Of a stretch of 57,266 nucleotides of DNA, positions 118-27,193 are shown one piece after another. Position numbers and translations under genes: made by a program. Below the pieces are notes generated by a model, which ran no database searches, was not told the DNA's origin, and worked only from the letters and a program-made list of their open reading frames with translations. This DNA is from an uncultured Bacilli bacterium. Its GTDB lineage: Bacteria > Bacillota_I > Bacilli_A > RF39 > UBA660. The DNA lies in the NCBI GenBank assembly GCA_947627925.1, contig CANQXW010000004.1:1-57266 (forward strand). The letters are read 5' to 3'. How positions within the stretch are numbered: position 1 is the first letter of the stretch; every line of letters starts with the position of its first letter.

Positions 118-981
118 CTACTTAATTTTAATTACTAATCTTCCCTCTTTATTTCTAAAATTATAAAGGGCTAATTCATGATTTTTTTCTTTATATAATA
201 CATAACCTTCATAATCAGCGTTTAATTTATTACCATTAAAAACTTTCTTATAAATATTATCTTCTTCTTGAATATTTATGACTTCAACATCTAAAACATC
301 TTCAATCTTTAATTTATGAAAATTTCCTTTTTCAATATCTTCTAAAGTAGAAGACATAGTAAGAGGAAACTCTCCTTGTTTAGTTCTTTCTAAAGAAGAC
401 ATCGTACCAATTGTATTTAGTTGATCACAAATAGTTTGAATTAGACTTCTAATATACGTTCCTTTACTGACTCTTGCCCGAAATTTAATTATATCATCAT
501 GATAATCTAACAATTCCAATTCTTTGATAAAGACTTTATTTTGAGGTAATTTGACTTCTTCTCCACCTCGAGCATATTCATATAATCTTTTGCCATTAAC
601 TCTCTTAGCCGAATAAAGGGGAATATCTTCTAAATATTCCCCTTGTAAGTTTTCTAAAACGTCTTTTATTTGACTAACTTGTAATTGGGGAACATCCCTT
701 TTTTCTAAAATATTACCGGTAATATCTAAAGTATCCGTTTTTATTCCCAATTTAATCTTTGCAATATATTCTTTTTCCAAAGATGAAAGTAAGGGAACTA
801 ACTTAGTATATTTATTAGTAAGACAAACTAAAATACCAGTAGCCATGGGGTCTAAAGTGCCCGTATGGCCAATCTTTTTAATTTTTAATATCTTTTCTAA
901 ATCATTAATGACTTTGCGACTAGTGGGTCCCGATTCTTTATTAACTAAAATGATATAATTATCCATTTTATTTACTCGCAA
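118..981 (-). CDS. truB: tRNA pseudouridine(55) synthase TruB
   Basis: 287-aa ORF with 'LVNKESGPTS' and 'GHTGTLDPMATGIL' (catalytic Asp motif) typical of TruB. It follows rbfA as in the conserved nusA-infB-rbfA-truB operon. The ORF-track start at 981 is TTG; the ATG at 966 (MDNYII...) is a likelier start. Confidence 0.92.
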   Translation of the reverse strand: MRVNKMDNYIILVNKESGPTSRKVINDLEKILKIKKIGHTGTLDPMATGILVCLTNKYTKLVPLLSSLEKEYIAKIKLGIKTDTLDITGNILEKRDVPQLQVSQIKDVLENLQGEYLEDIPLYSAKRVNGKRLYEYARGGEEVKLPQNKVFIKELELLDYHDDIIKFRARVSKGTYIRSLIQTICDQLNTIGTMSSLERTKQGEFPLTMSSTLEDIEKGNFHKLKIEDVLDVEVINIQEEDNIYKKVFNGNKLNADYEGYVLYKEKNHELALYNFRNKEGRLVIKIK

Positions 982-1537
982 TCTTTTTATTCCAAATAGA
1001 AGTATAATCTATTTCCTCAGTTTTCATATCATTAGGATCTTCTTTAAAATCGAGTTTATCTAAAAGTAACAGTAAATTAACTTCTTTTAAAGGAATTTCC
1101 ACATAAAGCTTAGAGAATCCTCCATTTTGAGCATAATTAGTCAAATATTCTAAAGTACTCTCCCATATTATTTTTTGCTCAGTTTGATAAGATTTTAATA
1201 ACGCAATTTCTTTAAGTCTTAAAGTTTTTTTATTAACCTCTATTCTTCCTAAACCAATTAATTTCCATCCGGAATAAATTTCCATAACCATAATATTTTG
1301 ATCATTTTTAATACTATCTAATACTTCTAATAATTTTTGGGAATTAGGAGAAATATCTAAAACATCTTGAGGAGGTTTTTTATAAGATTTACTAAGAATT
1401 ATTTCTAAATAAGAATCATAATAATCATGGCCATACATTTTCGTAAATAATTCATGATAAACATTTAAAATAAATTTTTCTTTTACCCAACTTATTTTTT
1501 TGTTATGAGTAATTTTCCATCGCATATTTTTTAACAT
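968..1537 (-). CDS. hypothetical protein, weakly GNAT-acetyltransferase-like
   Basis: 189-aa ORF tightly packed between rbfA and truB. The C-terminal half ('IGLGRIEV...LRLKEIALLKSYQ...FSKLYVEIPLKEVNLLLLLDKLDFKE') loosely follows the GNAT beta4-alpha3...beta6 pattern. No strong motif. Confidence 0.45.
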   Translation of the reverse strand: MLKNMRWKITHNKKISWVKEKFILNVYHELFTKMYGHDYYDSYLEIILSKSYKKPPQDVLDISPNSQKLLEVLDSIKNDQNIMVMEIYSGWKLIGLGRIEVNKKTLRLKEIALLKSYQTEQKIIWESTLEYLTNYAQNGGFSKLYVEIPLKEVNLLLLLDKLDFKEDPNDMKTEEIDYTSIWNKKIASK

Positions 1538-1546
1538 AATGTCCCT

Positions 1547-1888
1547 CTAATCTTGATGAATTTTTTTAATAATATTTTCAATATTTGAGGCATATTCAAT
1601 CGAAGTATCGTAAATAAAATGTAGTTCGGGAATATTTCGCACTTCTAAAACTTTAGCTAGTTCTCCCCGCAAGAAAGAAGATGCTTCATTTACTTCTTTC
1701 TCTAAAGTTTCATGAGGTAAGTCGCTAATACTCGTAAAATATACTTTGGCATAACTTAAATCTTTACTCGTTTCCACCGCGGTTAAAGTAATCGTTTTAA
1801 GTAATTCATCACGCGATTCTAACATAATAATATTACTTAAATATTTTAAAATATCACTACTAATTCTTTCAATTTTATGATTAGCCAT
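1547..1888 (-). CDS. rbfA: ribosome-binding factor A
   Basis: 113-aa ORF overlapping the infB stop. Sequence 'RISSDILKYLSNII...LTAVETSKDLSYAKVYF...IPELHFIYD' matches the RbfA pattern, and the operon position fits. Confidence 0.9.
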   Translation of the reverse strand: MANHKIERISSDILKYLSNIIMLESRDELLKTITLTAVETSKDLSYAKVYFTSISDLPHETLEKEVNEASSFLRGELAKVLEVRNIPELHFIYDTSIEYASNIENIIKKIHQD

Positions 1889-3989
1889 GAGAAACCTCGA
1901 CTAATTCAAAGACCTCTAGAGTATCGCCTTCTTTTATATCATTATACATTTCTAAAGTTAAACCACATTCAAAACCTTTTTTGATTTCTTTAGTGGATTC
2001 TTTGCCTCTTTGCAAAGTAGCTACTTTATCTTCACAAATAACAATACCATCTCTAATTACCCGAACACTAGAGTTACTCTTAATTAAACCATCGGTAACA
2101 TAACAACCGGCAATATTACCAATTTTGGAATATTTGAATATTTTTCTGATTTCCACAGTACCAATAATTTTTTCTTCAAATTCGGGATCAAGCATACCAG
2201 TTAAAGCTTGTTCCATTTCTTCCACTAATTTATAAATAATCGTATAAAGACGAATATCAACATTATATTCTTTAGCTATTTCTTTAGTGATATTGCTTGG
2301 AACAACATTAAAGCCAATAATAATGGCATTCGAAGCATTAGCTAAAATAACATCTGATTCTGTAATTGTCCCAATACCACTTCGAATAATTTTAATGACA
2401 ACATCGCCCACTTTAATTTTTTCAAGAGCACTACGAACAGCTTCTTCACTACCTCGAACATCCGCTTTTAAAATAATATTGACTTCTTTTTCGCCACCTT
2501 CAATTTTCTTAAATAAATCATCTAAAGAAACCACATCTTGTTTATATTTAGAAGCATTAAGATTCTTTCTTTTACTAGCAATTTCTTTCGCTTTACTTTC
2601 GGTTTCAAAAGCCATAAATTTATCCCCAGCTGAAGGATTATCAGAAATACCGGTAACTTCAACAGGCATTGATGGACCAGCTTCCACAATAGATTCGCCT
2701 AAATCATTTTTCATCGTTCTTACTTTACCAAAATACTCTCCAACCACAATAGGGTCCCCTATTCTTAAAGTACCATTTTGAATGATGAAAGAAGCAACCC
2801 CGCCAATATTTTTATCCATCCTCGACTCAATAACGGTACCCGTTGCATAACGGTTAGGATTGGCTTTATAATTATTAATTTCGGCGAGAGTTTCAATCGT
2901 TTCCAGTAATAAATCTACGCCTTCTCCTGTATGAGCGGAAATGTTGATAAATGGCACATCGCCACCCCAAGCTTCTGGGGTAATTCCTCTTTCGGCCATT
3001 CCCGTTAAGATTTTTTCCGGATTAGCCTCTGGTTTATCAATTTTATTAACCGCCACAATTATTGGGACACCCGCACTTTTAGCATGGTCAATTGCTTCTT
3101 CCGTTTGCGGCATAACCCCATCATCAGCAGCAACAATGATAATAACAATATCAGTTACACTAGCTCCTCTTGCTCGCATCTCAGTAAAAGCGGCATGACC
3201 GGGTGTATCAATGAAGGTTATTTTATTTCCATTATGATCAATTTGATAAGCACCAATATGTTGGGTAATCCCTCCAAACTCTCCATCAACAACATGAGAA
3301 TGACGAATGTAATCTAGAAGAGTTGTTTTACCATGATCAACATGACCCATAATAGTTACTATTGGAGGTCTTTTAACTAAATCTTCTTCTTTGTCAACTA
3401 TTTCAAATTCTTCAAAATTAGCTAAATCTTGGGTTTCTTCTTTCTTTAAAGTTTTACCATAATCTAAAACTACTATCTCGGCATTTTCATAATCAATAGA
3501 GTCATTTAAATTAAGCATTAAACCAAGACCCATTAACTTTTTAATAATGTCGGTGCCACTCACATCAAGACTATTCGCAAGTTCGCTTACAGTCATTCCT
3601 TGTTTGTATAAAATAATATCATCGCTAACTTCTTCATTACTCATTAATTTTTCTTTATGCTTATACATCTCTTTTTTCAAGATATTATAGTTCTCTTTAT
3701 TTTCGGATTCGGTATCTTTCTTTTTTAGTTTTTGCCGTTTTGAAGTGTTAGATTCCGTAATATTCTTACTTTCCATAATATCCATGGCAATATTTTCAAC
3801 CATTTCATCTTCATCATAAGTAATCTCATCGTCAGTACTAATCAAGTTTAAAACACTATCTAAGATAACAACACTATCATCATTTAGAATATCATCACCA
3901 GATGTGGCTTTAATTCCTAATTCGCTACACTTTTTTAAAACTTCAGCCACTGATAGATTTAAACTTTTAGCATATTCTTTTACACTCAT
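1881..3989 (-). CDS. infB: translation initiation factor IF-2
   Basis: 702 aa. GTPase motifs '[12 protein letters not shown]', 'DTPGH' and 'NKID'. Located downstream of nusA/ylxR. Confidence 0.97.
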
Positions 3990-4008
3990 TTTTTCTCCTC
4001 CTTATCTT

Positions 4009-4302
4009 TTATAATAAATTATTTAATTCTTCATAAATTTCTTCTTTAACTTCTGTTTCTAAAACTTTATCTAATATTTTACTTTGTTTGGCTTTAAGAA
4101 AAACTTCTTTATCTTTTTTTAAATAAGCTCCTCGGCCATTTTTCTTTCCGGTTAAATCAATTTCTACTTCTCCTAAAGGACTTCTTACCACTCTTACTAA
4201 ATCTTTTTTTTCCCATTTTTCTCTAGTGACAATACAAGTCCGCATCGGAATTTTCTTAGTCTTTATAAGAATCACCTTCTTACTCTTTGTTACCTTCTTC
4301 AT
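4009..4302 (-). CDS. ylxR: YlxR/RnpM-family RNA-binding protein (DUF448)
   Basis: 97 aa with 'PMRTCIVTREKWEKKDLVRVV...GRGAYL', the YlxR signature. Sits between nusA and infB. Confidence 0.85.
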   Translation of the reverse strand: MKKVTKSKKVILIKTKKIPMRTCIVTREKWEKKDLVRVVRSPLGEVEIDLTGKKNGRGAYLKKDKEVFLKAKQSKILDKVLETEVKEEIYEELNNLL

Positions 4303-5398
4303 TTATTTGCGATAAGGTCTTTATTTCTAATTTATATTTAGTTAATTTACTAGCTAAGCGAATATTACTTCCCTTTTTGCCAATAGCTAAAGATAAATTA
4401 TCATCCGTTACAATGGCTAAGGCTTCCTTTTTCTCTTCATCAGTTATATTTACAATAACATTTTTAGCCGGAGATAAGGAATTAGCAATAAAGGTTGCCG
4501 GATCTTCATCATATAAAACTAAATCGACTCTTTCACCATTAAGTTCTTTTAAAATTCCCGCAATACGGCTACCTTTTTCTCCAATACAAGCTCCGATAGC
4601 GTCAACTCTTTCATTGGTAGAATAAACCGCTACTTTACTTCTATTACCAGCATCTCTCGCAACACCATATAACACAATGGTACCATCTTGTAATTCGGGA
4701 ATAAATGATTCAAATAATCTTTTAACAAAACCATAATGTTTTCTTGATGTCATAATAACCGGTCCTTTAGTACCATTCTCCACTTTTGTAATATATACTC
4801 TTATATTAGAACCCATTTTAATTGTTTCGCCAGGAATAATTTCAGATTTAGGCAAAATACCTCTTGTTCTTCCTAAATCAATATAATAATTTCGTTGATC
4901 TTCCATTGCTACAAGGCCTAACATTAATTCATATTCTTTATCGGCAAATTCTTCAATAATACTATTTTTTTCCGCTTCTCTAATTTTTTGGGTCACAACT
5001 TGTTTGGCTGTGCCAGCCGCTACTCTACCAAAATCTTTAGGAGTTACTTCTTTTTCAATGGTATCTCCCACTTTAGCCTTAGGATCTATCTTTAAGGCAT
5101 CTTCTAAAAGGATTTGGGCATCAATATTAATCTCTGGTGGAACATCAATAACATTTCCTTCTTCATCAACTGTTTCGCTTCCTTCATCTATTTCCGGAAC
5201 AACTACTAAATAAGAAAATACTTTTATTTCTCCCGTTTCTCTATTAATATCCACTCTTACATTAGTCTTTGAATCAAAATTCTTTTTATAAGCTGTTTGT
5301 AATGCTAAAGTCATTGCTTCATAAACAACATCAGGACTAATATTTTTTTCTTTAACTATATTATCTACTGCTTTAATAAATTCTTTACTATCCATCAT
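4280..5398 (-). CDS. nusA: transcription termination/antitermination factor NusA
   Basis: 372 aa with an N-terminal domain, S1-like and two KH-like regions ('GACIGEKGSRI', 'LAIGKKGSNIRLASKLT'). Start overlaps the rimP stop (ATGA). Confidence 0.95.
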   Translation of the reverse strand: MMDSKEFIKAVDNIVKEKNISPDVVYEAMTLALQTAYKKNFDSKTNVRVDINRETGEIKVFSYLVVVPEIDEGSETVDEEGNVIDVPPEINIDAQILLEDALKIDPKAKVGDTIEKEVTPKDFGRVAAGTAKQVVTQKIREAEKNSIIEEFADKEYELMLGLVAMEDQRNYYIDLGRTRGILPKSEIIPGETIKMGSNIRVYITKVENGTKGPVIMTSRKHYGFVKRLFESFIPELQDGTIVLYGVARDAGNRSKVAVYSTNERVDAIGACIGEKGSRIAGILKELNGERVDLVLYDEDPATFIANSLSPAKNVIVNITDEEKKEALAIVTDDNLSLAIGKKGSNIRLASKLTKYKLEIKTLSQINEEGNKE

Positions 5399-5691
5399 TC
5401 TAAACCTCTTTCCTTACTTATTACATCTAATATGTATTCACTATCATATACATCATATTCATTAACAATGGGATCTATTATATGAGTTGCTTCCACAATA
5501 CCATCCACATCAATTCCGCCCACTTTGTCTAAAACAACCGTTAAAAATTGATATTTGCCCCGCTTTTCTAAATAAACCTCATCCACAATTATTTCTTTTT
5601 CCTTTAAAGCTTCTTCCAAAGCTTTTTTTAATTCTTCCACTACCTTTACCACCTCAAAACTATAAATAAAAGTGGGCATTTTGCATCCCAC
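5395..5691 (-). CDS. rimP: ribosome maturation factor RimP, N-terminal domain only (short form)
   Basis: 94-98 aa directly upstream of nusA. 'IVDEVYLEKRGKYQFLTVVLDK..GIDVDGIVEATHIIDPIV' resembles the RimP N-domain. It stops where the usual ~150-aa protein would continue. The ORF-track start is GTG; an ATG lies 4 codons in. Confidence 0.65.
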   Translation of the reverse strand: MGCKMPTFIYSFEVVKVVEELKKALEEALKEKEIIVDEVYLEKRGKYQFLTVVLDKVGGIDVDGIVEATHIIDPIVNEYDVYDSEYILDVISKERGLE

Positions 5692-5970
5692 TTAAATCTG
5701 TATCTAAATTATAGCAAATTTTTTCCTATTAAACAAGCAATTTTTGCTATTTATAGGTCAAAAACATATATGCCAAACAAAAAAGAAGTAAAAACTCCCT
5801 TTATGTTTAATATACCGAATTTTTAATTATTATTAATATGGTATAGAATATATACCATATTAATGTGTGATATTTTGGTATGTCTTAATATTAATATATT
5901 TAAAAACTTTTTTAAAGAGTTATTACTATTCTTTACACTTTTTATTGTATATTTACCTATTCATCGTTAA

Positions 5971-6480
5971 TCATTTTAATAAACCATTATGGACAAGTTT
6001 AGTTTCACTTACCGCCATAAAAGCATTTTCATCAAAACTTTTGACAATATTAGTTAACTCTTTTAATTTATTATTATTAATTTGAATATATAACATATCT
6101 TTTTCATGACCATCATAATCATCTTTTAAAGAAATGACCGAAACAGCATAACCAGACTTTCTTAATTTTCTCACTAGTTTCTCAGCCCTATCTTTTAAAA
6201 TAATTTGGACTCCTACTACTCCTTTAATATATTTATTGGATAACTTTGACCCAATATAAGTACCAGTTGCATAACCACCCGCATAAAATACGGCAATTAA
6301 AAACATATTCCCCGTTGTATTAATGGCCTCTCTAGCCACAATATACCAAATAAAGACTTCAAAAAAAGCAATAATAAACGGTTCAATAGTTTTTCCTTTC
6401 ACAAAAAAAACTGTTCTTATCGTTCCTAAAGTAACATCTACAATTCTCGCTGTAAAAATTTGCAAACACTTTAGTAACAT
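5971..6480 (-). CDS. UPF0316/DUF2179-family membrane protein
   Basis: 169 aa. The N-terminal TM region 'IFTARIVDVTLGTIRTVFFVKGK' is the hallmark of the UPF0316 family. The C-terminal part is a soluble DUF2179-like domain. Confidence 0.7.
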   Translation of the reverse strand: MLLKCLQIFTARIVDVTLGTIRTVFFVKGKTIEPFIIAFFEVFIWYIVAREAINTTGNMFLIAVFYAGGYATGTYIGSKLSNKYIKGVVGVQIILKDRAEKLVRKLRKSGYAVSVISLKDDYDGHEKDMLYIQINNNKLKELTNIVKSFDENAFMAVSETKLVHNGLLK

Positions 6481-6495
6481 AACAGTCCTTTCTAG

Positions 6496-6693
6496 TTAAA
6501 TTGTAAAAGCAACGATTAAGACCAAAAGAATAAAAAATAGAATAAAACCAAGGATAAATCCCCACATGATGGCATCGCCTGATTCTTCTCTTCTTTCAAT
6601 GAGTTCATTATCATGATTATACATTTCACTTTTTAATTTAACATTATTTGGTTGTTTATCTTTTTCTAGTACACCCTTTTTATTATCTATCAT
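6496..6693 (-). CDS. small hypothetical membrane protein
   Basis: 65-aa ORF with one C-terminal hydrophobic helix ('WGFILGFILFFILLVLIVAF'). No homology recognised. Confidence 0.4.
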   Translation of the reverse strand: MIDNKKGVLEKDKQPNNVKLKSEMYNHDNELIERREESGDAIMWGFILGFILFFILLVLIVAFTI

Positions 6694-6774
6694 TATTCTT
6701 CCTACTTTCTATAAAAATTATACCAAAAATATTTTAAAAATAAATATTTTCTTCCAAATTATTTTTACTAAAAA

Positions 6775-7956
6775 TTATTTAATGTTTTTATCATACTCAA
6801 TATCTGATACTTCATATTTTCGATGACTAGAAATATAATTCATGACTTTAATAGAAGCCCAGCCAATTAAAGCTAAAGCAAAGAAATACCAAAATCCAAA
6901 AAAGGAGAATGTTGGAGCTTCACTAGTAAATAATTCCAAAATTGCAGCCCCAGCAGACATCGAAGTAACAATAGTTAAGTTTTCCACACTCTTACTTGTA
7001 ATATCAGATTTTAAACCATTAAATAAATTTTGGGCAGAAGAAACATAATTTTTAGTCATTGTCCATAAGTATTTGATATAATCAAGCGTATCTTTTAAAG
7101 TTTCATAACGATAACCTGATATAGCTAAAAATTCCGCTAACTCCGGGTCATTTTTGGCAATCTTTTCTCGAGTACCAATATAAGTACTCATTTGGTTAAT
7201 TCGGCCATCAATTAAGTTGATAGTCTTCGCATATCCCTCTAATTTAGAAGTGAATTTCACAATCTCTGAACCCTTAACATGAGCATTTTCTTTAACTGCA
7301 TCAATTTTTTCCCAAATAATACGATGTAAATTTAAATAACGATGTAATTGACCTTTAAATTCTCTAATAAAAATTTGTTCTTCAATATATTTTTCAATAT
7401 TTTCTAATGATTGTTTTTTATTATTGATAAAATAAAACTTATCTCCTCTTAAAACATCATATTTAATATTTTCAAATTCAAAATATTTTTGATTATCAGT
7501 TCTACTCAAAAGATCAATTAAATCCTCCTTTTTAGCATTTTCACAAATAATAAAATAAGGAAAAATCGTCGTAATATTAGCAAGTTCTTTAGGAACAGGA
7601 GCTCCTAAACTAAATAAATAATTAAAGGCCGGAGATAATCTATTTTCATAATAATCTGTTGTTTTAGCCACATCAGCCAGTAAAGTATTTTCACTAACAT
7701 TGTTATTATTTAAAACGATTAAGCCATCCTCAAAAATTTTAACACTAATATCAAAAGAAGTTGTAAATTCAACATACTCTTCTCCAGATACGCCATAATC
7801 AATTTTGCCTATTTCTAAGTTTTTATGATATTCTTCTAATTTTTTATGATTTAAATTAAGTTGGGTCTTGCACGCTCTTAAAAAATCATATATTTCAGTT
7901 AATTGTAGCATGGTTCTTTGAAACCACCCACCAATATAAATGTTACTTATTTTCAT
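6775..7956 (-). CDS. hypothetical protein with C-terminal TM hairpin
   Basis: ORF 6775..8025 trimmed to the ATG at 7956 (MKISNIY...), which has an AGAGG Shine-Dalgarno 8 nt upstream. It has a large soluble N-terminal part and two C-terminal TM helices ('IVTSMSAGAAILELF', 'FFGFWYFFALALIGWASI'). Function not recognised. Confidence 0.6.
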   Translation of the reverse strand: MKISNIYIGGWFQRTMLQLTEIYDFLRACKTQLNLNHKKLEEYHKNLEIGKIDYGVSGEEYVEFTTSFDISVKIFEDGLIVLNNNNVSENTLLADVAKTTDYYENRLSPAFNYLFSLGAPVPKELANITTIFPYFIICENAKKEDLIDLLSRTDNQKYFEFENIKYDVLRGDKFYFINNKKQSLENIEKYIEEQIFIREFKGQLHRYLNLHRIIWEKIDAVKENAHVKGSEIVKFTSKLEGYAKTINLIDGRINQMSTYIGTREKIAKNDPELAEFLAISGYRYETLKDTLDYIKYLWTMTKNYVSSAQNLFNGLKSDITSKSVENLTIVTSMSAGAAILELFTSEAPTFSFFGFWYFFALALIGWASIKVMNYISSHRKYEVSDIEYDKNIK

Positions 7957-8398
7957 TTTTCTTGACCTCTTTTGTAAAAAATTTAGCATCCATGACATCA
8001 AAACCATAATTTTTATAACAGGCATGAGCAGCTGTCCGGAAATTTTTTGACCAAAGTTCTAAACAGACACAATCTCTCTCTTGGCAAATTTTATAACATT
8101 CATCTAAAAGTTTAGTCCCTATTTTATGCCGACGATATTCATTTTTAACACATACGTGATTTAAAATAGCATAAGTGTTCATTTCTTCGTACATGGTAGG
8201 AATAATTGTTAATTTAGCATGAGCTATAATTTGACCATCCATTAAACCTACTAAATATATTTGATTAGGATCATTTTCTGTTTCTTTAAAACTTTTTAGG
8301 GCATATTCTAAAGAAGTGTTTTCCGAAAAACATTCATTACATAAAGTAATTATTCCTTCAACATCATTAATACTTGCTAATCTAAATTCTACTTTCAT
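7943..8398 (-). CDS. GNAT-family N-acetyltransferase
   Basis: 151 aa. 'ILNHVCVKNEYRRHKIGTKLLDE' is the acetyl-CoA-binding Q/RxxGxG/A-like motif, followed by 'AAHACYKNYGFD'. Confidence 0.8.
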   Translation of the reverse strand: MKVEFRLASINDVEGIITLCNECFSENTSLEYALKSFKETENDPNQIYLVGLMDGQIIAHAKLTIIPTMYEEMNTYAILNHVCVKNEYRRHKIGTKLLDECYKICQERDCVCLELWSKNFRTAAHACYKNYGFDVMDAKFFTKEVKKNENK

Positions 8399-8494
8399 AC
8401 TAACCTCTATTCTAAGATAATTATATAATAGTTTTGATAATATAGGTTAAAAGAAGTTCTTATCTTGACGTTTTAACGTCAAGAAAAAAGGAAA

Positions 8495-11400
8495 TTATTT
8501 TCTATTTCCTCTTCCAAATGTATTATTATTGGTAACATCTTGCGTAAATGACGCAAAACTAATTTTAAGCATATTCAAAGCATGTCTAAAACTTACTACA
8601 GCTTCTTCTTCATCAAGATTTAAAAATTCTGCTAATCTAGAAAGATTAAAATTTTTACCTTCCATGTAACACACAAGTAAAAATGTAAATATTACACTAT
8701 CTTTTAAAGTTTCATTTAATAATAACCTTCTAAATCGGGAAATTTTTAAAAGTTCCATGGCTTTTAGATAAATATTATTCATTTCTTCATCGCTTAAATC
8801 TGGTATAGTTTTTGAAGTAACTTCTTCAAATGCCCTTTCAGAATCAGCGGGTTCTGGTTCTTCTGCTAATATAGAAGGATCAAGAGTTTCTACTGGCTCT
8901 TCTAGTGATACTAATTCTGGAGCACCATCAGGTTCTTCTATTGTTATAGAATCATCAAGAACTTCCGTTGATTCTTCTAATGATACCAATTCAGGAGCAA
9001 CTTCATCTACATCTGGTGATAGTTCTTCTATTGATGTAGAGGTATCAAGAACTTTCGTAGACTCTTCTTGTACTACTTCTATAGTAGCATTTTCTTGTAC
9101 CGTATTAGTAGTTAAATCTTTTTCTTTTGAATCTTCTAGAACATCAAGAGTTTCTAAATTTTCTTCTTTTTCTTCACGATGACTATTTAAGAATTTTAGA
9201 AGCAAAGGAGCAATTTGGATACTAAATCGGCGTTTTCTTGATGGCGTCCATATTTGGGCATTTAACTCATCAAGATTTCTTCCCCATCTTTGATAAATAA
9301 GATCTTTATTTGATTCACCTAAAGATTCAACGGCCTTTAGCATTTCTTCTTTAGAATACTTGCTAAACATAGGCATTTCTAAAATTGGTAAAGTGAGATT
9401 TCCATAGGCGCTAACGGATTTACCATCTCTTAATCTTTCCATTATACCTATTAATCTATCGTTTAAATTTTTAGCTAAAAGTTGGGAATCTTTATATGAA
9501 CAATGGGAATTTTTAATCGGATGTTCTAAATCATCGCCCCATTTTAATTTCATTGCCGCTTTTATATTTGTGGGCAAATAATTAATTGCTTCGATGATTT
9601 CCTCCCTAGAATATTTACTTAAGGCTGGATCATTTAAAGGAGTTATTTTATCACTAGAATCATCTCTAGAACCAAATTCGGTTGTCAATAAATCAAAAAT
9701 TCTCGGATAAATATTACTATATAATTGATATTTATGACTCGTTCTCCAAATAGGACTTCTAACCGGATGTTCTAAATCAGAACCAAAGCTAAGATTTATT
9801 ATTTCTTTATAATTATCTGGCAATCTATCTATTGCCCAAAGAATTTCTTCTTTCGTATATAATTTAAAATCTTCATATGCAAAAATAGGTTTCACTTTAT
9901 TTGCCATTTTTCCACTTCCTTCTATATTATTTTTTGATTTCGTAGCTTGTTTAGGAGATGAACCTTTTTTAGAAATTTTTGGTTTTCCCCAATTTTCAAG
10001 GCGATATTTACCTTGATTTGCTTTATTAGGCCAAATACTAACTTTTATAGGAGTAAAAGATGTATGATATTCAACTATCTCTATTTCGCCTCTTTGAGCT
10101 CGCTCTTCGAGTTTTTGCCTTTCAGCTTTTCTTTTCTCTTCCATTGCTCTAACCGAAACCAAATGATAGGCATCAGCTCCATTAACCTGAGCGGGAGATT
10201 GATTAGGTTGATTTTGAGGATTGGAATCAGAAAAATCTCTTAATTTCTTAGCTCTCGATGGATGTCTTAACTTTCTTAAAGCCTTCACTTCAATTTGTCT
10301 AATCCGCTCTCTCGTAACGCCAAATTTTTTACCAACATATTCTAATGTATGCTTTTTACCATCTTCAAGGCCAAATCGTAATTTTATAACTTCAGCTTCT
10401 TTGGGAGATAAGTATTCTAATACCTCAGATATGGACTTTTGCAACATGATAAATTCTACTTCTTCTTCGGGAGTAAGTTCATTTTCATCAGCAATAAAAT
10501 CTATTAGCAAAGAATCTTCATCCTCACCGATAGGTGTTTCCAAAGATACCATTTGATAACTCTTATCTTTTAAATCCTTAACTTTCGAAACTGGTATATT
10601 CATTTCCGCGGCTAGTTCTTCATCAGTTGGTGCTCGGCCCAATTTCATTTCTAAGTTTTTTTCTACCTTATTCATATTACGCATGTTTTCAACAACATGA
10701 ACAGGTAATCTAATAGTTCTCGATTTATCAGCAATAGATCTCATAATACTTTGCCGAATCCACCAAGTTGCATAAGTCGAAAATTTGTAGCATTTCTTGT
10801 AATTATATTTTTCAACAGCTTTAATTAACCCAAGATTGCCCTCTTGAATTAAATCTAAGATATCTATTCCTTGGTCTTGATACTTGCGTATAAATCCCTT
10901 TGCCACCCAAACAACTAATCTTAAATTAGCCTCGACAAATCTATTGCGAATTTCCATATTGTCGGGATTTTCCTCTAAAATTTTTCCCAATCGTTGCTCC
11001 TCTTCCATAGTAAGCAAGGGAGTATTGCCTATTTCGATTAAATAAATTTTAAGTGAGTTAGCGGAAGAACCCCAAACGCCTTTCAATAGAGCTTCATCAC
11101 TATAATCGCGATCCTTAACTTCCACATTATTTATATTACAATAAATTTCCAAAAATAATAGTAAAGACTCTTCTTTTAAAACACCTTCTATGCCATCATT
11201 TTTAATTTCTTCCTTATGTTGAGACACTAATTCCCGAAATAATCCATTTAAAATAGCATTTCTCTTAAATAATTTAATAATTATTTCTTCTGATGGACTA
11301 TATTGTAAATCTTCTAAAAATTTAGCTAACTTTTCTAAAGAATTTGTAACATTATCTATTACTAAATTATGATCAATAAAATCCATAATAATTTGTAAAG

Positions 11401-11674
11401 CGCGAATATAATCATCCATTATAAAAAATAATAGTTTTTCTTCAAAAATATTTTCTATATTAGAAAGATCATTTTCGGATAAACTAGCAATTACCTCTTG
11501 CATTTGGGGAACAATTAATGAAGAGAATTCATCTAAAGAATATGAGTTTTTAAAGCGTTCATAAAAAGTTTTAATAAAAGAAAAAAAGAAAGATTCTATA
11601 TCATTTAGAGAATATGATTTAAGTTTTGTTAAATTTAAATTTTCCATATCCATCAATCTTTCTTTTAATATCAT
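8495..11674 (-). CDS. rpoD: group-1-like RNA polymerase sigma-70 factor with a long C-terminal extension
   Basis: 1059 aa. Residues ~205-481 carry primary-sigma signatures: '[12 protein letters not shown]', '[13 protein letters not shown]', '[17 protein letters not shown]', '[10 protein letters not shown]', 'IRLPVHVVE' and '[39 protein letters not shown]'. The protein then continues for 578 more residues (see findings). Confidence 0.85.
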
Positions 11675-11719
11675 TCCAGTATCACACTATTGAGAATGAA
11701 ACTTTTAAAAATTGCTTCT

Positions 11720-11748
11720 ATAATACCATTTTTAAAATAATTTTACAA
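11720..11748 (-). promoter_or_regulatory. putative sigma-A-type promoter of the large sigma gene
   Basis: Minus strand reads TTGTAA-N17-TATTAT with TGg immediately upstream of the -10 (extended -10), ~40 nt before the ATG at 11674. Confidence 0.4.
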
Positions 11749-11784
11749 TAACTTTTTACCATTTTTTTCTAAAAATTTTCATAA

Positions 11785-12687
11785 TTAGCGATGACGAGTT
11801 AATTCATCTAATGATTTAGAATAATTATTGTTATAGTTTTTTAATCGTTCATTCCTATTTTTTGGAGTATCTATAGATGATTTTTCGGCTTCATAATATT
11901 GATGTAATTTACATAAAGCTCTATGATAATGATAACTTACGGCTTGAATCTTGACATTCAAAATTTGGGCAATTTCCAATAATTTCATTTTTTCATAGCC
12001 AGGAAGACCATAATAATGACCAATGACAAATAATTGTCTAGGAGTTAAAATCTCGTTTAAAGTAGCTTTTAAATGATCGGTGACATCTAAAGATATGACC
12101 TGATCTTCTACTGACTCATCCGGAGAAATTATAGTGGATTCAAAATCTTTACTATCACTATCATCATTAATATTATCATTTATCCGAACACAACCACCGA
12201 TAGCAGTTAAAAGAGATAAGGCCGTATCTTCTTTTATCCCCATACATGTAGCAAATTCTTCAAGACTTGGCTTTCTTTCTAATTTATTTGCTAATTCACG
12301 GTAGACATATTTGGCTTTTTGAAATTTACCATAAATTATACTATTTTTAGGAACTGAAAAATCATAACCCATCGTTTGCACAAATTCCTGTAAATTTCTT
12401 ATTACATATATAGGCATATAAGTTGAAAAACGATATCCAAGACTAGGATTATAATTATTTATAGCTTTAAGTAAACCAATAACAGCTTCTTGAAATAAAT
12501 CTTCATGAGGAATACCAAAAGAAGAAAAACGATAAATACATCTTTCCATAAGCCCTATATTATAACTAATTAAGGCTTCTTGAGCTTCATTATTACCAGC
12601 TTTAGCATTTCGAATTAAAGCTTGCTCTTGTTCTAAAGATAAATCATTTGGCATAGATTTAATTTCTTCATAACTACAACTAGCCAT
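11785..12687 (-). CDS. sigma-70 family RNA polymerase sigma factor (paralog 1)
   Basis: 300 aa. Region 2 is 'DLFQEAVIGLLKAINNYNPSLGYRFSTYMPIYVIRNL', there is a region-3-like 'PSLEEFATCMGI', and the region 4 HTH is 'LTPRQLFVIGHYYGLPGYEKMKLLEIAQILNVKIQAVSYHYHRAL'. Confidence 0.85.
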   Translation of the reverse strand: MASCSYEEIKSMPNDLSLEQEQALIRNAKAGNNEAQEALISYNIGLMERCIYRFSSFGIPHEDLFQEAVIGLLKAINNYNPSLGYRFSTYMPIYVIRNLQEFVQTMGYDFSVPKNSIIYGKFQKAKYVYRELANKLERKPSLEEFATCMGIKEDTALSLLTAIGGCVRINDNINDDSDSKDFESTIISPDESVEDQVISLDVTDHLKATLNEILTPRQLFVIGHYYGLPGYEKMKLLEIAQILNVKIQAVSYHYHRALCKLHQYYEAEKSSIDTPKNRNERLKNYNNNYSKSLDELTRHR

Positions 12688-12714
12688 TTTATCCCCCTCT
12701 TTTCAGTAAGACAT

Positions 12715-12743
12715 ATAATACCACAAAATTGGGGATTTAGCAA
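12715..12743 (-). promoter_or_regulatory. putative sigma-A-type promoter of sigma paralog 1
   Basis: Minus strand reads TTGCTA-N17-TATTAT preceded by TGg (extended -10). The core 'TTTGTGGTATTATATGTC' is shared with the paralog-2 promoter. Confidence 0.5.
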
Positions 12744-12766
12744 ACATTTTCATTAATTTTTGTTAA

Positions 12767-13678
12767 TTAACGATTACGTGTTGATCTATTTAATGATTGA
12801 TAATAACTATCGCTAAAATTTTTTAATTGTTCTTCCCCTTTTTTGGGGTAATCTAAATAAGATGATAATCTTTTTGTTTCATAATAAAGGCGTAATTTAG
12901 TTAAAGCTTTTTTATAATATAAATCGACATTTTGATGCGTTACATGCCACAAACGCGCTATTTCTGATAAGCTCATTTTCTCATAACCTGGAAGGCCAAA
13001 AAAATGGCAAATGATAAATAATTGTTTAGGAGTTAAAATTTTATGTAAAATAGACGTTAAACGTTCAGCTAAATCTAATGCCATGACTTGATCCTCCACT
13101 GATTGTTCCGTACTTGTTAAAAAAGATTCAACATCTTTACTATCATTATCATTCTTAATTTTAGCATTTAGGCGAACGCAACCACCGATAGTAGTTAAAA
13201 GAGATAGGGCGTCATTTTCACTCATATCCATACTGGCAGCAAATTCTTCCAGACTTGGCTTTCTTTTTGAATCAGCTGATAATTCGCGATAGACATATCT
13301 AGCTTTTTGTAATCTCCTATAAACTTCACTACTTTTAGCAACCGAAAAATCATAACCCATTATTTGAACTAGGTCCTCTAAAGCTCTTTTTATATATAAA
13401 CGAACATAAGTGGAAAAACGAAAATCAAGCTCAGGATTATATTTTTCTGTCGCCTTAAGAAGACCAATAACGGCTTCTTGGTATAAATCTTCATAAGGAA
13501 TACCATAAGAAGAAGCAAAATGATAAGCATAATAATTAATAGTCCCCGCATTATAACTTATTAAAGCCTCTTGAGCTTCAGAAATACCCATCGCCGCAGC
13601 CCTTATTAAATTTTTTTCAGCTTCTAAAGATAACGTATTCTCTTGTTGTTTAATTCTCTCATAACTACAACTTGCCAT
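12767..13678 (-). CDS. sigma-70 family RNA polymerase sigma factor (paralog 2)
   Basis: 303 aa, colinear with paralog 1. It has the same 'MASCSYE' N-terminus and the motifs 'EAQEALISYN', 'DLYQEAVIGLLKA', 'MGYDFSV', 'GGCVR' and 'ILTPKQLFIICHFFGLPGYEKMSLSEIA'. Confidence 0.85.
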   Translation of the reverse strand: MASCSYERIKQQENTLSLEAEKNLIRAAAMGISEAQEALISYNAGTINYYAYHFASSYGIPYEDLYQEAVIGLLKATEKYNPELDFRFSTYVRLYIKRALEDLVQIMGYDFSVAKSSEVYRRLQKARYVYRELSADSKRKPSLEEFAASMDMSENDALSLLTTIGGCVRLNAKIKNDNDSKDVESFLTSTEQSVEDQVMALDLAERLTSILHKILTPKQLFIICHFFGLPGYEKMSLSEIARLWHVTHQNVDLYYKKALTKLRLYYETKRLSSYLDYPKKGEEQLKNFSDSYYQSLNRSTRNR

Positions 13679-13705
13679 TATAACCCTTCTTTTTAATTAG
13701 GACAT

Positions 13706-13734
13706 ATAATACCACAAAGTATTTACTTTGGCAA
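13706..13734 (-). promoter_or_regulatory. putative sigma-A-type promoter of sigma paralog 2
   Basis: Minus strand reads TTGCCA-N17-TATTAT with TGg extended -10, the same architecture as 12715..12743. Confidence 0.5.
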
Positions 13735-13743
13735 ATACAACTT

Positions 13744-13769
13744 AATATTGTGAAATATTGTGAAATATT
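13744..13769. repeat. 10-nt tandem direct repeat (aatattgtga x ~2.7) just upstream of the paralog-2 promoter
   Basis: Read directly: 'aatattgtga aatattgtga aatatt'. It lies 10 nt upstream of the -35 on the minus strand. Confidence 0.8.
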
Positions 13770-14103
13770 TGCTTTTCCAAATAATATGTGATAAATTATT
13801 ACTAGATGTAATTGATTGTATTATGAAGAATAATTTATTTAAATAAAATAATTATATAAATGTCTTTTGATGTCATATTTAAAATATTTATAAATGAAGA
13901 TAGTACAACATTAATGCTACTTTGTTTTAATAATCAAAATTGCTATTCTTTAAATTTTTGCAATAGAGAGTATGCAAATTAAACTTTGTATAAAATTCTT
14001 AAAAAACTAATTTAGTCAAAAGCATTAAATAATCAAAATTATCAAAATATATGCCATATGGATAATTATATTAAATTAATATTAGAAGAGGAAGTGATTA
14101 ATT

Positions 14104-14937
14104 GTGAGTGTAATTGCATATTTTGATGAATCTGGAGATGACGGATTAAAAAATTATTCGAGTGAAATTTTTATTTTGACTGCAACGTATATGCATACAA
14201 GTAACTGGCAAGAAAATTATGATAAAATAAAAGAATTTAGACATTCTTTAAAAAAACATTATAATATTCCTATAAAAGAAGAATTCCATGCAGCAAATTT
14301 TTTTACGGATAAAAATCCTTATAGACAATATTCACTATCACCAAATGATAAAAAATTAATAGTCAAAGTATATGCTAAAGTTATTGCAAGTTTAAATATC
14401 AAAGTAATAAATACTATTATTGATAAAGAAAATATAACGAAGTCAGAATATAATGTTTTAAGTAATTCTTTAACTTATACAATTCAGAGAATAGAAAACG
14501 ATAGTAATTGGAAATATATTATTATATCTGACAAAGGAAGAATTCAAATTATGAAAAAAACAGCAAGAGCTATTCGAAATTATAATCCTATAACTTCCAT
14601 GTTTGATGAAAATTTTTACAAAAATTCACCTATAAAAAACATGATAGAAGATATATTAGAAAAGGACTCAAAAGAATCTTATTTTATTCAAGTAAGTGAT
14701 TTTATATCATTTATTATAAATCTTTATTATAAATATTGCGTAAAAAATAAAGAATTGCCAAAAAGAATATCTAGTTGGCTTACTAAAGAAGACATAATTG
14801 AACTTATGAATTTGCTGAAAGATATATTTAATATAAATGCAAGCGCTACCAATGAATATGGTTTAGTAATTTATCCTAAAAAGTTCCAAAAAAAAGGCAC
14901 CACCTTGCCCTCATTCGAGGATGGAGTGGTTCAATAA
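14104..14937 (+). CDS. DUF3800-domain protein
   Basis: 277 aa with a GTG start and a GAGGAAGTGA Shine-Dalgarno. The N-terminal 'VIAYFDESGDDG' is the DUF3800 hallmark. It is one of the few plus-strand genes. Confidence 0.7.
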   Translation: MSVIAYFDESGDDGLKNYSSEIFILTATYMHTSNWQENYDKIKEFRHSLKKHYNIPIKEEFHAANFFTDKNPYRQYSLSPNDKKLIVKVYAKVIASLNIKVINTIIDKENITKSEYNVLSNSLTYTIQRIENDSNWKYIIISDKGRIQIMKKTARAIRNYNPITSMFDENFYKNSPIKNMIEDILEKDSKESYFIQVSDFISFIINLYYKYCVKNKELPKRISSWLTKEDIIELMNLLKDIFNINASATNEYGLVIYPKKFQKKGTTLPSFEDGVVQ

Positions 14938-17762: not shown

Positions 17763-18114
17763 TCTTTGCACCAAAATTTTTCATTATTCGCGTTTCTGAA
17801 GAAAATGTTTTAATACGTAATCTTCTTAATTTTGACTCTAATTCCCTCCTTACATTACAGATAAAAATATTTCCTTTGTAGTTTTTAACAAGACACTTTG
17901 TAAGAATTAAAGCATTTATTCCTGACTCATCAATACTATCTAAATATTTAAAATTATAAATAAGATTCTCTATTTTATGTTTCTTTAATACTGGTACTAA
18001 ATAATTATGAATCTTATAAACAGACCTCTTATTTAAATTTCCCTTTAATCTTACAAAAAGTATTTCTCTCTTATACCTTTTAAACTTCCGATATTCTAAA
18101 TCCATCTTTAACAT
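17752..18114 (-). CDS. spoIIAA: STAS-domain anti-sigma-factor antagonist (SpoIIAA-like)
   Basis: ~120 aa from the ATG at 18114 (AGGTGA Shine-Dalgarno). 'ILFVRLKGNLN...LDSIDESGINALIL' fits the STAS fold with a Ser in the DxSG-like loop. Its stop overlaps the sigma-gene start by 11 nt. Confidence 0.55.
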   Translation of the reverse strand: MLKMDLEYRKFKRYKREILFVRLKGNLNKRSVYKIHNYLVPVLKKHKIENLIYNFKYLDSIDESGINALILTKCLVKNYKGNIFICNVRRELESKLRRLRIKTFSSETRIMKNFGAKNEL

Positions 18115-18315
18115 ATATTCACCTGCTACTTTAATATAGTGCAATTTTTTAATTTTTTAAACAGATTCGACAAAGGTTAGCATATGTTATAAAAATCCGA
18201 CAAAATTAAACAAAATATACTTACATATAAAAAATGAATAAAGTCCAATCATTAATAGTACTTTATTCATAATTAGTTTATCTATATTCAATTTTTTAGT
18301 TTTTAAAAATATTCG

Positions 18316-19593
18316 TTATTCAGGAGAAATTATATATGGAGTATTTATATCGCCGTTGCCGCCTGTAATTTTTATATCGGACCTAAGATAGAAGACCGGA
18401 CGAACCGCACCCGTACCGTCCAAAGCCTTGCCGAAGGTTACAGACCCGCTACTATCCACAGACCACGCATAGTAATAGCCGTTGTTGTACCAACCATACC
18501 TGGTCATCGTCCATTCATGATCCGTTGTTGGTTGGGAAACTCCTGATGGAGTATTATTTGCTCCATTTAAGCCATTTTGTATAAATAACCAATTGTTTGT
18601 ATCTTCACTACTGGCATATAAATAATCACTTGCATACATTAACCCTATTTTGGCATTATCAATACTCTTTGTTCTTTCATTTTGAAATAATGTTGGGTTA
18701 CTACTTGATGTTGTATCTCCCATATAATATTTTGGCGTATCTATTAATTTGGTCCATGTTTCTTCTTGCATGTAACTATATTTGTCATTTTCGATGAATA
18801 TAGGGTTACCATTTGAAGTTGTTCCATTTAATCTCTTATATAAATCTGAATTTGGCCAAGTGATATTTGATGTATACTTATTATTCCATGCAAAATCACC
18901 ATATGAACCTGTTCCTCCTGCTAATTTTGTGGCCTTTATTACTTTTAATCTTCCGGCTGTATCTATCCCGATTATTCTATACATATATGTATCCATATTA
19001 TCTTTACAATCTTTTTGACTATTTGTTCCAAAACATATAAAGTTATCTGTTACTTCATCTTTTGTTCCTGTAAATCTCCTTAAGTCATCTTTTTTAGTGC
19101 CTATTGTTTCATTTCTTATACATAATTCTATCTCCGACTCTAAAGTTCCTTCTAACATTCCTTCTATTACTGTTCTTCCAGAATTTTGTTCAATCAATCC
19201 AGCTGATCCGCCAAACGTTCCTGGTTTAGTCGGGGGTGTTTCTGGTGCCTTTCCAAAATATAATGAACAATATACAGTTTTATTTGAGGTTATGATGGCT
19301 GTATGACTGGCATTATCAAATGATAATACTTCTTCAGCGGGTACTTCAACATGATTTCCATAATAACATTCTGCTTTCTCATATTCTTTGTCTGTTGGCC
19401 ATGAAGTCATCCCTTCTTGTAATTCGCCATCTATATAATAGGCTAATGTACTTTTGGTTTTTATATTTTCATTATAACTTACTTTTGTTATATCTTTATC
19501 TCTATTAGCAAATGATCTAAATGTTAAATACATTATTGGTATTTCTATTATTAATAACGTTATTAATATAATTTTATATACTTTTCTCTTCAT
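18316..19593 (-). CDS. membrane-anchored/secreted hypothetical protein (C-terminal DUF6273-like region)
   Basis: 425 aa with an N-terminal TM/signal anchor 'IILITLLIIEIPIMYL'. The C-terminal 'WPNSDLYKRLNG...IGLMYASDYLYA...GAVRPVFYL' resembles the DUF6273-type extracellular domain (recognition by eye only). Confidence 0.55.
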   Translation of the reverse strand: MKRKVYKIILITLLIIEIPIMYLTFRSFANRDKDITKVSYNENIKTKSTLAYYIDGELQEGMTSWPTDKEYEKAECYYGNHVEVPAEEVLSFDNASHTAIITSNKTVYCSLYFGKAPETPPTKPGTFGGSAGLIEQNSGRTVIEGMLEGTLESEIELCIRNETIGTKKDDLRRFTGTKDEVTDNFICFGTNSQKDCKDNMDTYMYRIIGIDTAGRLKVIKATKLAGGTGSYGDFAWNNKYTSNITWPNSDLYKRLNGTTSNGNPIFIENDKYSYMQEETWTKLIDTPKYYMGDTTSSSNPTLFQNERTKSIDNAKIGLMYASDYLYASSEDTNNWLFIQNGLNGANNTPSGVSQPTTDHEWTMTRYGWYNNGYYYAWSVDSSGSVTFGKALDGTGAVRPVFYLRSDIKITGGNGDINTPYIISPE

Positions 19594-19605
19594 TTTCTTT
19601 CTCCT

Positions 19606-20331
19606 CTAACTTACTTTATTAAAATACGCATAACATAAATCCGGTACTTTATATTTCACTGTCATTTTATTATTTTCATATGTTATCACTGTTTGGGTAG
19701 ATTGATCTTTATTATTACATTCATAATTTTCTAATTTATATCCACTATCTGGTATCTCTTGGATTGTATATTTTTTTCCTTCTTTTTCTTTCACTATTGT
19801 TCCTTCATTTGATTCTACTAAGGCTATTACATTTATATCTCCATTTAATTGATCATATTTGCTAAAGTCAATATTGTAATATAATCTACATACTATTTGA
19901 TGAGGTTTATCTTCACTTATAGTTATTTTTAAATTTCCGTTTTCATCAAAGCCATAATTACTATACTTTACTTTATCATTATCTAGTTCACTTTCTTCGG
20001 GTATACAGTTACTCTTACTTTTTACTAAGGTATATTCTTTTATATCTACTGGGGCTGTTTCTAATACGACATATTCTTTAGGATTAAATATATCTTGAAT
20101 ATAATATAATAAGTTTATATCAGTATTAGTATCTAAAGGAGATGTATCTCCTTTGGCAAATTCTCCTATTTTAGTACTTAATATAGGTAGTTCATTACTA
20201 CTACTATAATAGGCATATGAATTATGTGATGAAATAAGCCAAATAACTTGGACTATAATTACTAATGCAATTATTATTAAACTTTTATATTCTTTAATAG
20301 TATTTAAGATTTTACTCTCCTTTATTTTCAT
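19606..20331 (-). CDS. membrane-anchored hypothetical protein
   Basis: 241 aa with an N-terminal TM 'LIIIALVIIVQVIWLI'. It has Cys-bracketed modules ending 'C.LYY'/'CYAYF' that also occur in the downstream 425-aa protein. Confidence 0.5.
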   Translation of the reverse strand: MKIKESKILNTIKEYKSLIIIALVIIVQVIWLISSHNSYAYYSSSNELPILSTKIGEFAKGDTSPLDTNTDINLLYYIQDIFNPKEYVVLETAPVDIKEYTLVKSKSNCIPEESELDNDKVKYSNYGFDENGNLKITISEDKPHQIVCRLYYNIDFSKYDQLNGDINVIALVESNEGTIVKEKEGKKYTIQEIPDSGYKLENYECNNKDQSTQTVITYENNKMTVKYKVPDLCYAYFNKVS

Positions 20332-20714: not shown

Positions 20715-20745
20715 TTTCTTTTTTTATTCATAAAAAAGCAGAAGA

Positions 20746-27182: not shown

Positions 27183-27193
27183 ATTTAACCTCC

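Follow-up and report, generated by a model that had tools for sequence, protein, structure and literature searches.

We analysed a 57,266-nucleotide (nt) stretch of DNA from an uncultured Bacilli bacterium (contig CANQXW010000004.1; the whole stretch is called the window here), in which a gene on the minus strand encodes a genuine member of the sigma-70 family whose group-1-like core is complete, spanning regions 1.2-4.2. The final residue of this core was amino acid (aa) 481, from which the open frame ran on for another 578 aa; to our knowledge, textbook sigma-70-family members end at region 4.2, and few bacterial proteins have been studied as thoroughly as sigma factors. Profile comparisons showed that the protein ends in a second complete sigma-4-like domain, which we refer to as sigma4', and between the core and sigma4' lie three modules that, in our reading of profiles and structural models, descend from sigma domain 4 and no longer keep its helix-turn-helix (HTH). 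The protein is one member of a large unannotated family that has repeatedly duplicated domain 4 into arrays. Its parts, with the modules given as envelopes of a hidden Markov model (HMM), are located in the window as follows:

8495..11674, minus strand: the whole gene, encoding a 1059-aa sigma-70-family protein with a C-terminal tail
11063..11674, minus strand: N-terminal domain (aa 1-204), entirely helical and specific to the family, in which the motif 'IE.YC..NNIE' is conserved
10232..11062, minus strand: sigma core (aa 205-481), regions 1.2, 2, 3 and 4, defined by Pfam matches
9878..10231, minus strand: linker (aa 482-599), rich in Lys, Gln and Pro and fast-diverging
9905..9927, minus strand: internal ATG of Met590 (nt 9905-9907) and the AAGGAAG upstream of it, a possible site of a gene fusion, or of internal initiation that would give the tail alone (470 aa)
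9668..9877, minus strand: module 1 (aa 600-669), HMM envelope; a three-helix unit apparently derived from sigma region 4.1
9422..9631, minus strand: module 2 (aa 682-751), HMM envelope
9170..9376, minus strand: module 3 (aa 767-835), HMM envelope
8810..9169, minus strand: acidic spacer (aa 836-955), holding a 2 x 25-aa tandem repeat (nt 8849-8998)
8498..8806, minus strand: terminal sigma-4-like domain sigma4' (aa 957-1059), with the part equivalent to 4.1 and the HTH at aa 986-1037 (nt 8564-8719)
11785-12687 and 12767-13678, minus strand: two tandem sigma paralogues of ~300 aa, sharing the hypervariable block of the big sigma

Pfam matches in the core were all above their gathering scores, with region 1.2 at aa 207-231 (28.6 bits), region 2 at aa 247-320 (61.7 bits), region 3 at aa 329-405 (71.4 bits) and region 4 at aa 419-471 (73.6 bits). 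The core was ~55-59% identical to Firmicute RpoDs and its -35 recognition helix was canonical ('TRERIRQIE'). The first-pass annotation of this DNA had described a 578-aa extension beyond a complete group-1-like core at aa 205-481, which the Pfam domains and the end of the core at aa 481 bear out, and had called the N-terminal ~200 aa unlike a canonical region 1.1, in agreement with the lack of a Pfam match to region 1.1 (PF03979) at the N-terminus. The N-terminal domain was conserved in other family members, and its profile found no informative match in the PDB. A 419-aa sigma with this same domain and without the tail was encoded at 7470-8729 of a related locus (L003). The annotated start of the window protein (11647-11674, minus strand) had no obvious ribosome-binding site, and the true start may be Met10, because a homologue (P0003) begins at the position aligned with it.

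The same architecture was found unbroken in independent material. An identical protein was present on an ENA contig seen in 4 samples, and uninterrupted fusions were also encoded by an 86%-identical version in a Logan assembly (P0002, locus L010), by a 55%-identical version in an NCBI metagenome-assembled genome (MAG; P0003, locus L008), and by more distant versions in two 'uncultured Bacilli' MAGs from the rabbit gut (L002 and L003). The sigma core, the modules and the same C-terminal domain were joined without a break in all five. That the long open reading frame (ORF) is an assembly or frameshift artefact joining two genes has a vanishingly small probability in our view. The residues past Met590 do resemble the N-terminus of a standalone tail protein, with a Shine-Dalgarno (SD)-like motif before them, but the same continuous ORF occurred in assemblies that differ in sample and pipeline, as well as in 84 of the 149 best representative matches of the family, and among close relatives the linker was in frame and of conserved length. 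The possibility of an artificial fusion, raised when the protein was first annotated, is thereby ruled out.

The modules were clearly related to one another. Local alignments between them gave z-scores of 9.6-18.5 above 300 shuffles, none of which reached the observed scores. Across the family, modules recurred with a period of ~79 aa, separated by linkers of ~11 aa. An iterated module HMM also found the true region 4.1, a result that was possibly circular, and the search was repeated with a module-only model and controls. Built from 28 bona fide modules, this HMM found one site in 114/114 canonical RpoDs at 12-20 bits, with no score above 5.5 bits for 570 shuffled sequences or above 1.2 bits for reversed ones. 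The 26 matched residues, '..LDKVLDSLTDREKKVLRLRFGLD', open domain 4 (region 4.1), and the last of them lies ~46 positions before the C-terminus. Direct alignment of the module with region 4.1 by hhalign had a probability of 94% (expectation value, E, 1e-7) over 27 columns, and the best matches of the module profile among PDB sequences were to SigA/RpoD region 4.1 (E 0.012-0.15). Profile methods were needed to see this relationship. Pairwise comparisons of the modules with the protein's own region 4 were not significant (z 0.1-2.9), and for each of PF04545 and PF08281 5/20 modules gave weak matches (best E 0.0018 and 0.0019, respectively), none of them at the cut-off; module 1 of the window scored 12.2 bits against the Sigma70_r4 cut-off of 25.7.

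An AlphaFold2 model of the module, made from a 20-module alignment, was of good predicted quality (predicted local distance difference test, pLDDT, 84; predicted template modelling score 0.71) and comprised helices at residues 9-17 and 21-31 and a long helix at 46-68, with a 14-residue loop (32-45) that carries a conserved 'DLEHP'. The first HTH helix appears to be missing from the module, because the model has this loop at its place. The first-pass annotation had put three modules at aa ~597-832 and likened them to sigma regions 4.1 and 4.2. Their shuffle-tested mutual similarity and the HMM envelopes at aa 600-835 support the placement, and the likeness holds for region 4.1, that is, the first two helices, but does not extend to the HTH of region 4.2, which was not retained according to the AlphaFold2 loop and the missed Pfam cut-off. 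Separately, a 1171-aa family member from Logan (P0010) has an extra well-preserved region-4-like HTH, 'LSQREYEVLELRFGLKDGKKRSIDEIGRVFSLDQSTVSRNIKKSINKLKE', at aa ~640-690 between its sigma core and its modules, which looks like an intermediate between a true region 4 and the degenerate modules.

For sigma4', a profile of 34 sequences matched the sigma-4 domain of T. maritima RpoD (1tty, E 2.3e-8), Thermus SigA (E 2e-7) and dozens more SigA/RpoD chains in the PDB, in alignments of 55-67 residues that spanned both 4.1 and the 4.2 HTH. When the window's clade was left out, the profile gave the window domain 50 bits, where shuffles reached 9.5 at most, and hhalign matched it to 58 columns of a canonical region-4 alignment (E 7e-6). 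The AlphaFold2 model (pLDDT 86) had helices at 34-49, 55-61 and 66-96 and fits a sigma-4 domain with two extra N-terminal helices. A final helical domain of unspecified kind had been noted in the first annotation; its helical nature is confirmed by the model, and it can now be identified as the second sigma-4-like domain. It has gone unannotated because single sequences seldom reach Pfam Sigma70_r4 (3/34 do so, and that of the window does not). At the four positions that we take to be the -35-contacting residues of sigma-70 (R584, R586, R588 and Q589), the sigma4' family consensus has R584 replaced by E, R586 by E, R588 conservatively by K and Q589 by E. The recognition helix of sigma4' opens with 'EEEEV', and the mean net charge of the domain is -2.4.

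The acidic spacer between module 3 and sigma4' is 120 aa long, with 33% D+E, and is presumably disordered. Its acidic tandem repeat, in which a 75-nt unit occurs 1.9 times at 8856-8999 (76% matches) and which encodes aa 893-917 and 918-942 (nt 8849-8998), is present as first annotated, over a shorter span than the 8840-9067 given then. P0002 has one copy of the repeat, and the L002 protein has none.

An exhaustive profile search over 1.84 billion representative proteins, clustered at 50% identity, defined the extent of the tail family, with 1168 clusters at E<=1e-3, 654 at E<=1e-10 and 154 at E<=1e-30; a full-length query of a 5.8-billion-protein database also recovered it. The number of modules per protein, counted as matched stretches, ranged from 1 to 21. 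The 149 best representatives and further family sequences (157 proteins) were sorted by architecture. A full sigma core was accompanied by sigma4' in 41 proteins and stood without it in 23; the corresponding numbers were 18 and 10 for a partial core match (region 2 and/or 4), and 26 and 39 for proteins with no core, where part of the group lacking both core and sigma4' are probably fragments. A few proteins had the modules N-terminal to the sigma core, and chromosomal examples of standalone tail proteins were found. The tail was shown in this way to be an autonomous evolutionary unit, occurring behind full or partial sigma cores, before cores, or standalone. It matched no Pfam family, and we found no literature describing the tail family. 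All traceable sources were uncultured low-GC gut Firmicutes, in which the family loci occupied ordinary chromosomal contexts (tRNA synthetases, Tex, nrdD, the spoVA operon), never adjoined dnaG, and in several cases held more than one sigma gene. Defence-like genes lay near some members, namely SIR2, Mrr, deaminase and methylase genes at L004 and AbiEii at L007. At the latter locus (17791-21634), sigmas of 780 aa and 496 aa were encoded near a standalone tail gene and the AbiEii gene.

The locus of the window protein evolved in a manner quite different from its surroundings. Ratios of nonsynonymous to synonymous substitution (dN/dS) were estimated by the Nei-Gojobori method between the window and L008, which is fully syntenic with it, unless L010 is named:

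nusA: 98.7% aa identity, dN/dS 0.02
infB: 97.2% aa identity, dN/dS 0.03
GNAT: 98.7% aa identity, dN/dS 0.06
393-aa protein: 99% aa identity, dN/dS 0.03
adjacent sigma paralogue: 54% aa identity, dN/dS 0.48-0.60
big sigma, whole: 54% aa identity, dN/dS 0.36 (0.38 against L010)
big sigma, core: 62% aa identity, dN/dS 0.24 (0.16 against L010)
modules 1-3: 55-72% aa identity, dN/dS 0.13-0.36
sigma4': 70% aa identity, dN/dS 0.25 (0.35 against L010)
linker: 39% aa identity, dN/dS 0.46 (0.49 against L010)
acidic spacer: 22% aa identity, dN/dS 0.79 (0.86 against L010)

The acidic spacer evolves almost neutrally, and the modules and sigma4' were shown to be under purifying selection despite the hypervariable locus; against the closer L010, the modules gave dN/dS of 0.41-0.98 from few substitutions. 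The modules were also specific to their positions, with module 1 in the window's clade 59-76% identical to its orthologues versus 22-29% to modules 2 and 3. On the grounds of the dN/dS of the modules and sigma4' and of this position specificity, we consider the tail functional. Flanking genes were 92-99% identical to those of L008 at the aa level, with dN/dS of 0.02-0.06, and nucleotide identity to L008 was ~70% over window positions ~8800-13800 versus 89% downstream. The dS of the sigma gene against L008 (0.87) was within about twofold of that of infB and nusA (0.56-0.58), so that the excess is one of amino-acid change and not simply of allele age. Because dS forms a mosaic along window positions ~75-13800 (against L008, 0.09 for GNAT and 0.58 for infB; against L010, 0.55 for GNAT and 0.044 for the sigma N-terminus), recombination with breakpoints around the sigma cluster is suggested.

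These data bear on the role of the gene in its host, which we regard with good confidence as that of an alternative, group-2-like sigma, group-1-like in sequence and not the housekeeping sigma. It would be very improbable for the gene to encode the housekeeping sigma A of its host, decorated in a way particular to the lineage, even with a complete group-1-like core that includes region 1.2 and a canonical -35 recognition helix, with RpoD models as its best NCBIfam matches, and with no other rpoD in the 57-kb window. The scores stayed under the curated cut-offs of the RpoD equivalogs, at 363 bits for PRK09210 (cut-off 572) and 325.7 bits for TIGR02393 (cut-off 354). In region 2.4, the residue equivalent to E. 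coli T440, as we take the sigma-70 numbering to be, was Met in the window protein; this position was T in 112/112 canonical RpoD cores versus 18/65 family cores. Together with the low identity and high dN/dS relative to the flanks, which hold for the core taken by itself, the lack of dnaG linkage and the tandem sigma paralogues at the locus, these are our reasons for setting the housekeeping role aside. The term 'primary-type' used in the first annotation is accordingly misleading: the core is group-1-like in sequence, but the gene misses the RpoD cut-off and is ~10x less constrained than its neighbours. Two database entries annotated 'RpoD' (P0004 and P0008) had an internally duplicated sigma core and anomalously high scores; they look like assembly chimeras, unrelated to the tail finding, and were left out of the core reference alignment and of the residue-conservation and dN/dS-related comparisons, and retained in the canonical set for the region-4 alignment and the module-HMM control.

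The linker may preserve a trace of how the protein arose. Standalone tail proteins start with 'M-(K/R)-K-x-K-(T/S)-I-Y-x-x-F-x-x-Y-S-K-E-E', a pattern that the window protein matches after Met590, and an AAGGAAG stands 7-8 nt before the ATG of Met590 in the window, L008 and L002, and also at the equivalent ATG of L010. In the window, L008 and L002 this motif falls in differing codon phases and encodes differing residues, within a linker that is 23-39% identical. Such a pattern is consistent with a past event in which a sigma gene was fused to a tail gene lying downstream of it, and the tail might also be translated alone from Met590 as a 470-aa product. A conserved internal Met was rejected as a general feature of the family, being present in 36% of 56 fused proteins versus 25% by chance; the internal Met and the SD-like motif occurred together only in the window's sub-clade.

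What might such a tail do? Acting as an intramolecular anti-sigma or decoy, or as a binding platform, as proposed in the first annotation, are candidate functions still. In solved complexes, the half of sigma domain 4 that the tail keeps contacts the RNA polymerase beta-flap tip, AsiA, Rsd and FlgM, and we infer from the alignments that the tail kept this protein-contacting half, with the DNA-reading half lost from the modules or reversed in charge. Our best explanation, which taken as a whole we give an even chance of being right, includes a more tentative proposal about mechanism, whose steps jointly we hold to be somewhat less probable than that. The tail would not read promoter DNA, because its modules lost the HTH helix and the recognition helix and overall charge of sigma4' are acidic; it would be a protein-binding appendage that mimics sigma domain 4. 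Candidate partners would be those that dock on sigma-4, namely the beta-flap tip, anti-sigma-like proteins and activators. In cis the tail would regulate or tether its own sigma, in trans the standalone relatives, and perhaps the Met590 product, could do likewise, and the acidic repeat would serve as a flexible spacer that the protein can do without.

Alternatively, the tail could be an extra nucleic-acid-binding platform, in which basic third helices and linkers together with the sigma4' HTH anchor the holoenzyme near promoters or the nucleoid, a possibility that we consider fairly unlikely. Across 511 modules of the family there is a charge dipole, with an average of +3.3 in the C-half and +2.3 in the linkers, sigma4' keeps the HTH topology, and 1-21 copies would tune avidity; yet the modules lack the first HTH helix, their N-halves are acidic (-2.9), the three modules of the window carry net charges of -3, 0 and +3, acidic residues occupy the DNA-contact positions in the recognition helix of sigma4', and the window tail contains its long acidic spacer. 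Sequence-specific DNA reading by the tail is unlikely. This also bears on an improbable variant in which sigma4' is an alternative promoter-reading head and the modules its tether, so that it replaces region 4 on the beta-flap with a second -35 specificity or none. Sigma4' does align to the whole of region 4, and many members show a region-2 match only, followed by modules and sigma4', but three of the four -35 contacts are reversed or acidic and the fourth is a conservative change, and the ~150 residues before the modules in the region-2-only members could hide a divergent region 4.

A role in an arms race, with the tail as a decoy array titrating phage or other inhibitors that bind sigma domain 4, has equally little probability in our estimation. 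T4 AsiA and phage G1 gp67 inhibit transcription via sigma domain 4, and the hypervariability of the sigma locus within otherwise near-identical DNA, the varying copy number, the mimicry of the 4.1 half and the defence-like genes at L004 and L007 would all suit a decoy. Against it, searches of PADLOC and PHROGs returned only generic sigma-core matches, the one in PADLOC being to MzaA, and no tail family; the tail was absent from isolated phages and plasmids by tblastn and from IMG/VR with P0127 as the query; module dN/dS was below 1 relative to L008; and most genomic contexts were ordinary housekeeping neighbourhoods.

Several points also weigh against the protein-binding account that we prefer. 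Foldseek searches of the PDB were not significant for either the module (best E 0.77, TM-score <= 0.57, with nearly all top matches to sigma domain 4) or sigma4' (best E 0.2), and therefore structural membership is not claimed. The conserved module residues look structural, consisting of an S/T-x-x-E capping box and hydrophobic core positions, no conserved interaction surface of the modules was identified, and every binding partner of the tail is putative. The basic C-halves and linkers seen across the family are more in keeping with non-specific binding of nucleic acids than with protein mimicry alone. The raised dN could reflect relaxed constraint instead of adaptive change, and the organism may lack a separate canonical sigA; the 57-kb window holds none, nor a second rpoD or dnaG.

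More broadly, the tail could represent a new class of polyvalent sigma-domain-4 mimics, with arrays of 1-21 modules derived from region 4.1 and a sigma-4 cap that does not read DNA, acting in cis or in trans and capturing sigma-4-docking proteins or beta-flaps, for example as decoys against inhibitors that target sigma-4 in a host-parasite arms race or as polymerase-clustering scaffolds. We think this generalization quite unlikely, and were it true it would add to the control of transcription in uncultured gut Firmicutes a layer that has gone unrecognised. Should the tail turn out to mimic sigma-4, transcription initiation would be regulated or protected in a new way, and nature would have supplied a set of orthogonal sigma-4-like binding modules. 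Even with a mundane role, the family merits a domain model, being annotated at present as plain 'RpoD'.

Elsewhere in the window, which has a G+C content of 25-34%, we found infB, nusA, spoVAC, spoVAD and sigF, an upstream STAS protein, and CotZ and phosphoketolase genes; the relatives of its IF-2, at 77-97% identity, were all from uncultured 'Bacilli/Firmicutes bacterium' MAGs. The two tandem sigma paralogues directly upstream of the big sigma matched no specific NCBIfam sigma class and had extended -10-like promoter matches before them at 12743..12715 and 13734..13706, within a promoter and terminator scan that was uninformative overall (42 promoter-like sites vs 32.8 +/- 5.7 expected). At the edge of the sigma cluster, a DUF3800 protein is encoded on the opposite strand and had no PADLOC assignment. 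Further along the window are a HerA-like ATPase and a type-VII-secretion-like cluster:

14104-14937, plus strand: DUF3800 protein
22476-24347, minus strand: HerA-like DUF87 ATPase
25472-40272, minus strand: type-VII-secretion-like cluster, comprising the next three genes
25472-26200: 242-aa protein with a C-terminal WXG100 domain
27194-34519: 2441-aa ORF between the WXG100 and ATPase genes, with no Pfam match
35653-40272: 1539-aa FtsK/SpoIIIE-family (EssC-like) ATPase

Among known systems, the group 1 and group 2 sigma-70 proteins (RpoD/SigA and their non-essential paralogues) share with the window protein regions 1.2, 2, 3 and 4 and the -35 helix. They stop after region 4.2, whereas the window protein has its long extension, a different N-terminal domain and faster evolution. 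MzaA of the MZA anti-phage system is likewise a long member of the sigma-70 family that carries a large extension of a non-canonical kind, and the cores match. That extension is N-terminal and unrelated to the window tail, and the window protein scored 321 bits against an NCBIfam cut-off of 800, over model positions 472-721 (the sigma core) only, and 218 bits with the PADLOC model, so that it does not belong with MzaA.

C-terminal extensions that modulate a sigma factor's own activity or promoter recognition are known from the extracytoplasmic function (ECF) groups ECF41 and ECF42 and from M. tuberculosis sigma-J, which has a SnoaL_2 domain (PMC3426412, PMC5766207). All of these have cores of sigma2 and sigma4 only, with SnoaL-like or tetratricopeptide repeat (TPR) extensions. 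The window protein falls outside these groups, in that its group-1-like core has regions 1.2 and 3 and its extension, without a SnoaL-like or TPR Pfam domain, consists of apparently sigma-4-derived repeats and a second sigma-4.

Two systems offer precedents for the way in which the tail may work. In the SigO-RsoA (YvrI/YvrHa) sigma of Bacillus subtilis, which has two subunits, region 2 and region 4 are on separate polypeptides (PMC8103513, PMC7826278). SigO-RsoA is not known to have repeats, and the window protein has its full core and sigma4' on one chain. The two are likened here by description only, with SigO-RsoA as a precedent for the standalone proteins composed of modules and sigma4'. 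In the PhyR-NepR-EcfG partner switch, a sigma-like domain binds the protein partner of a sigma factor (PMC4814048, PMC4551977). PhyR, a response regulator, contains an ECF-like sigma2-sigma4 domain and lacks repeats, and the window protein has no receiver domain; the resemblance is one of functional analogy only, and as such PhyR provides a precedent for the working model of the tail as a mimic of sigma domain 4.

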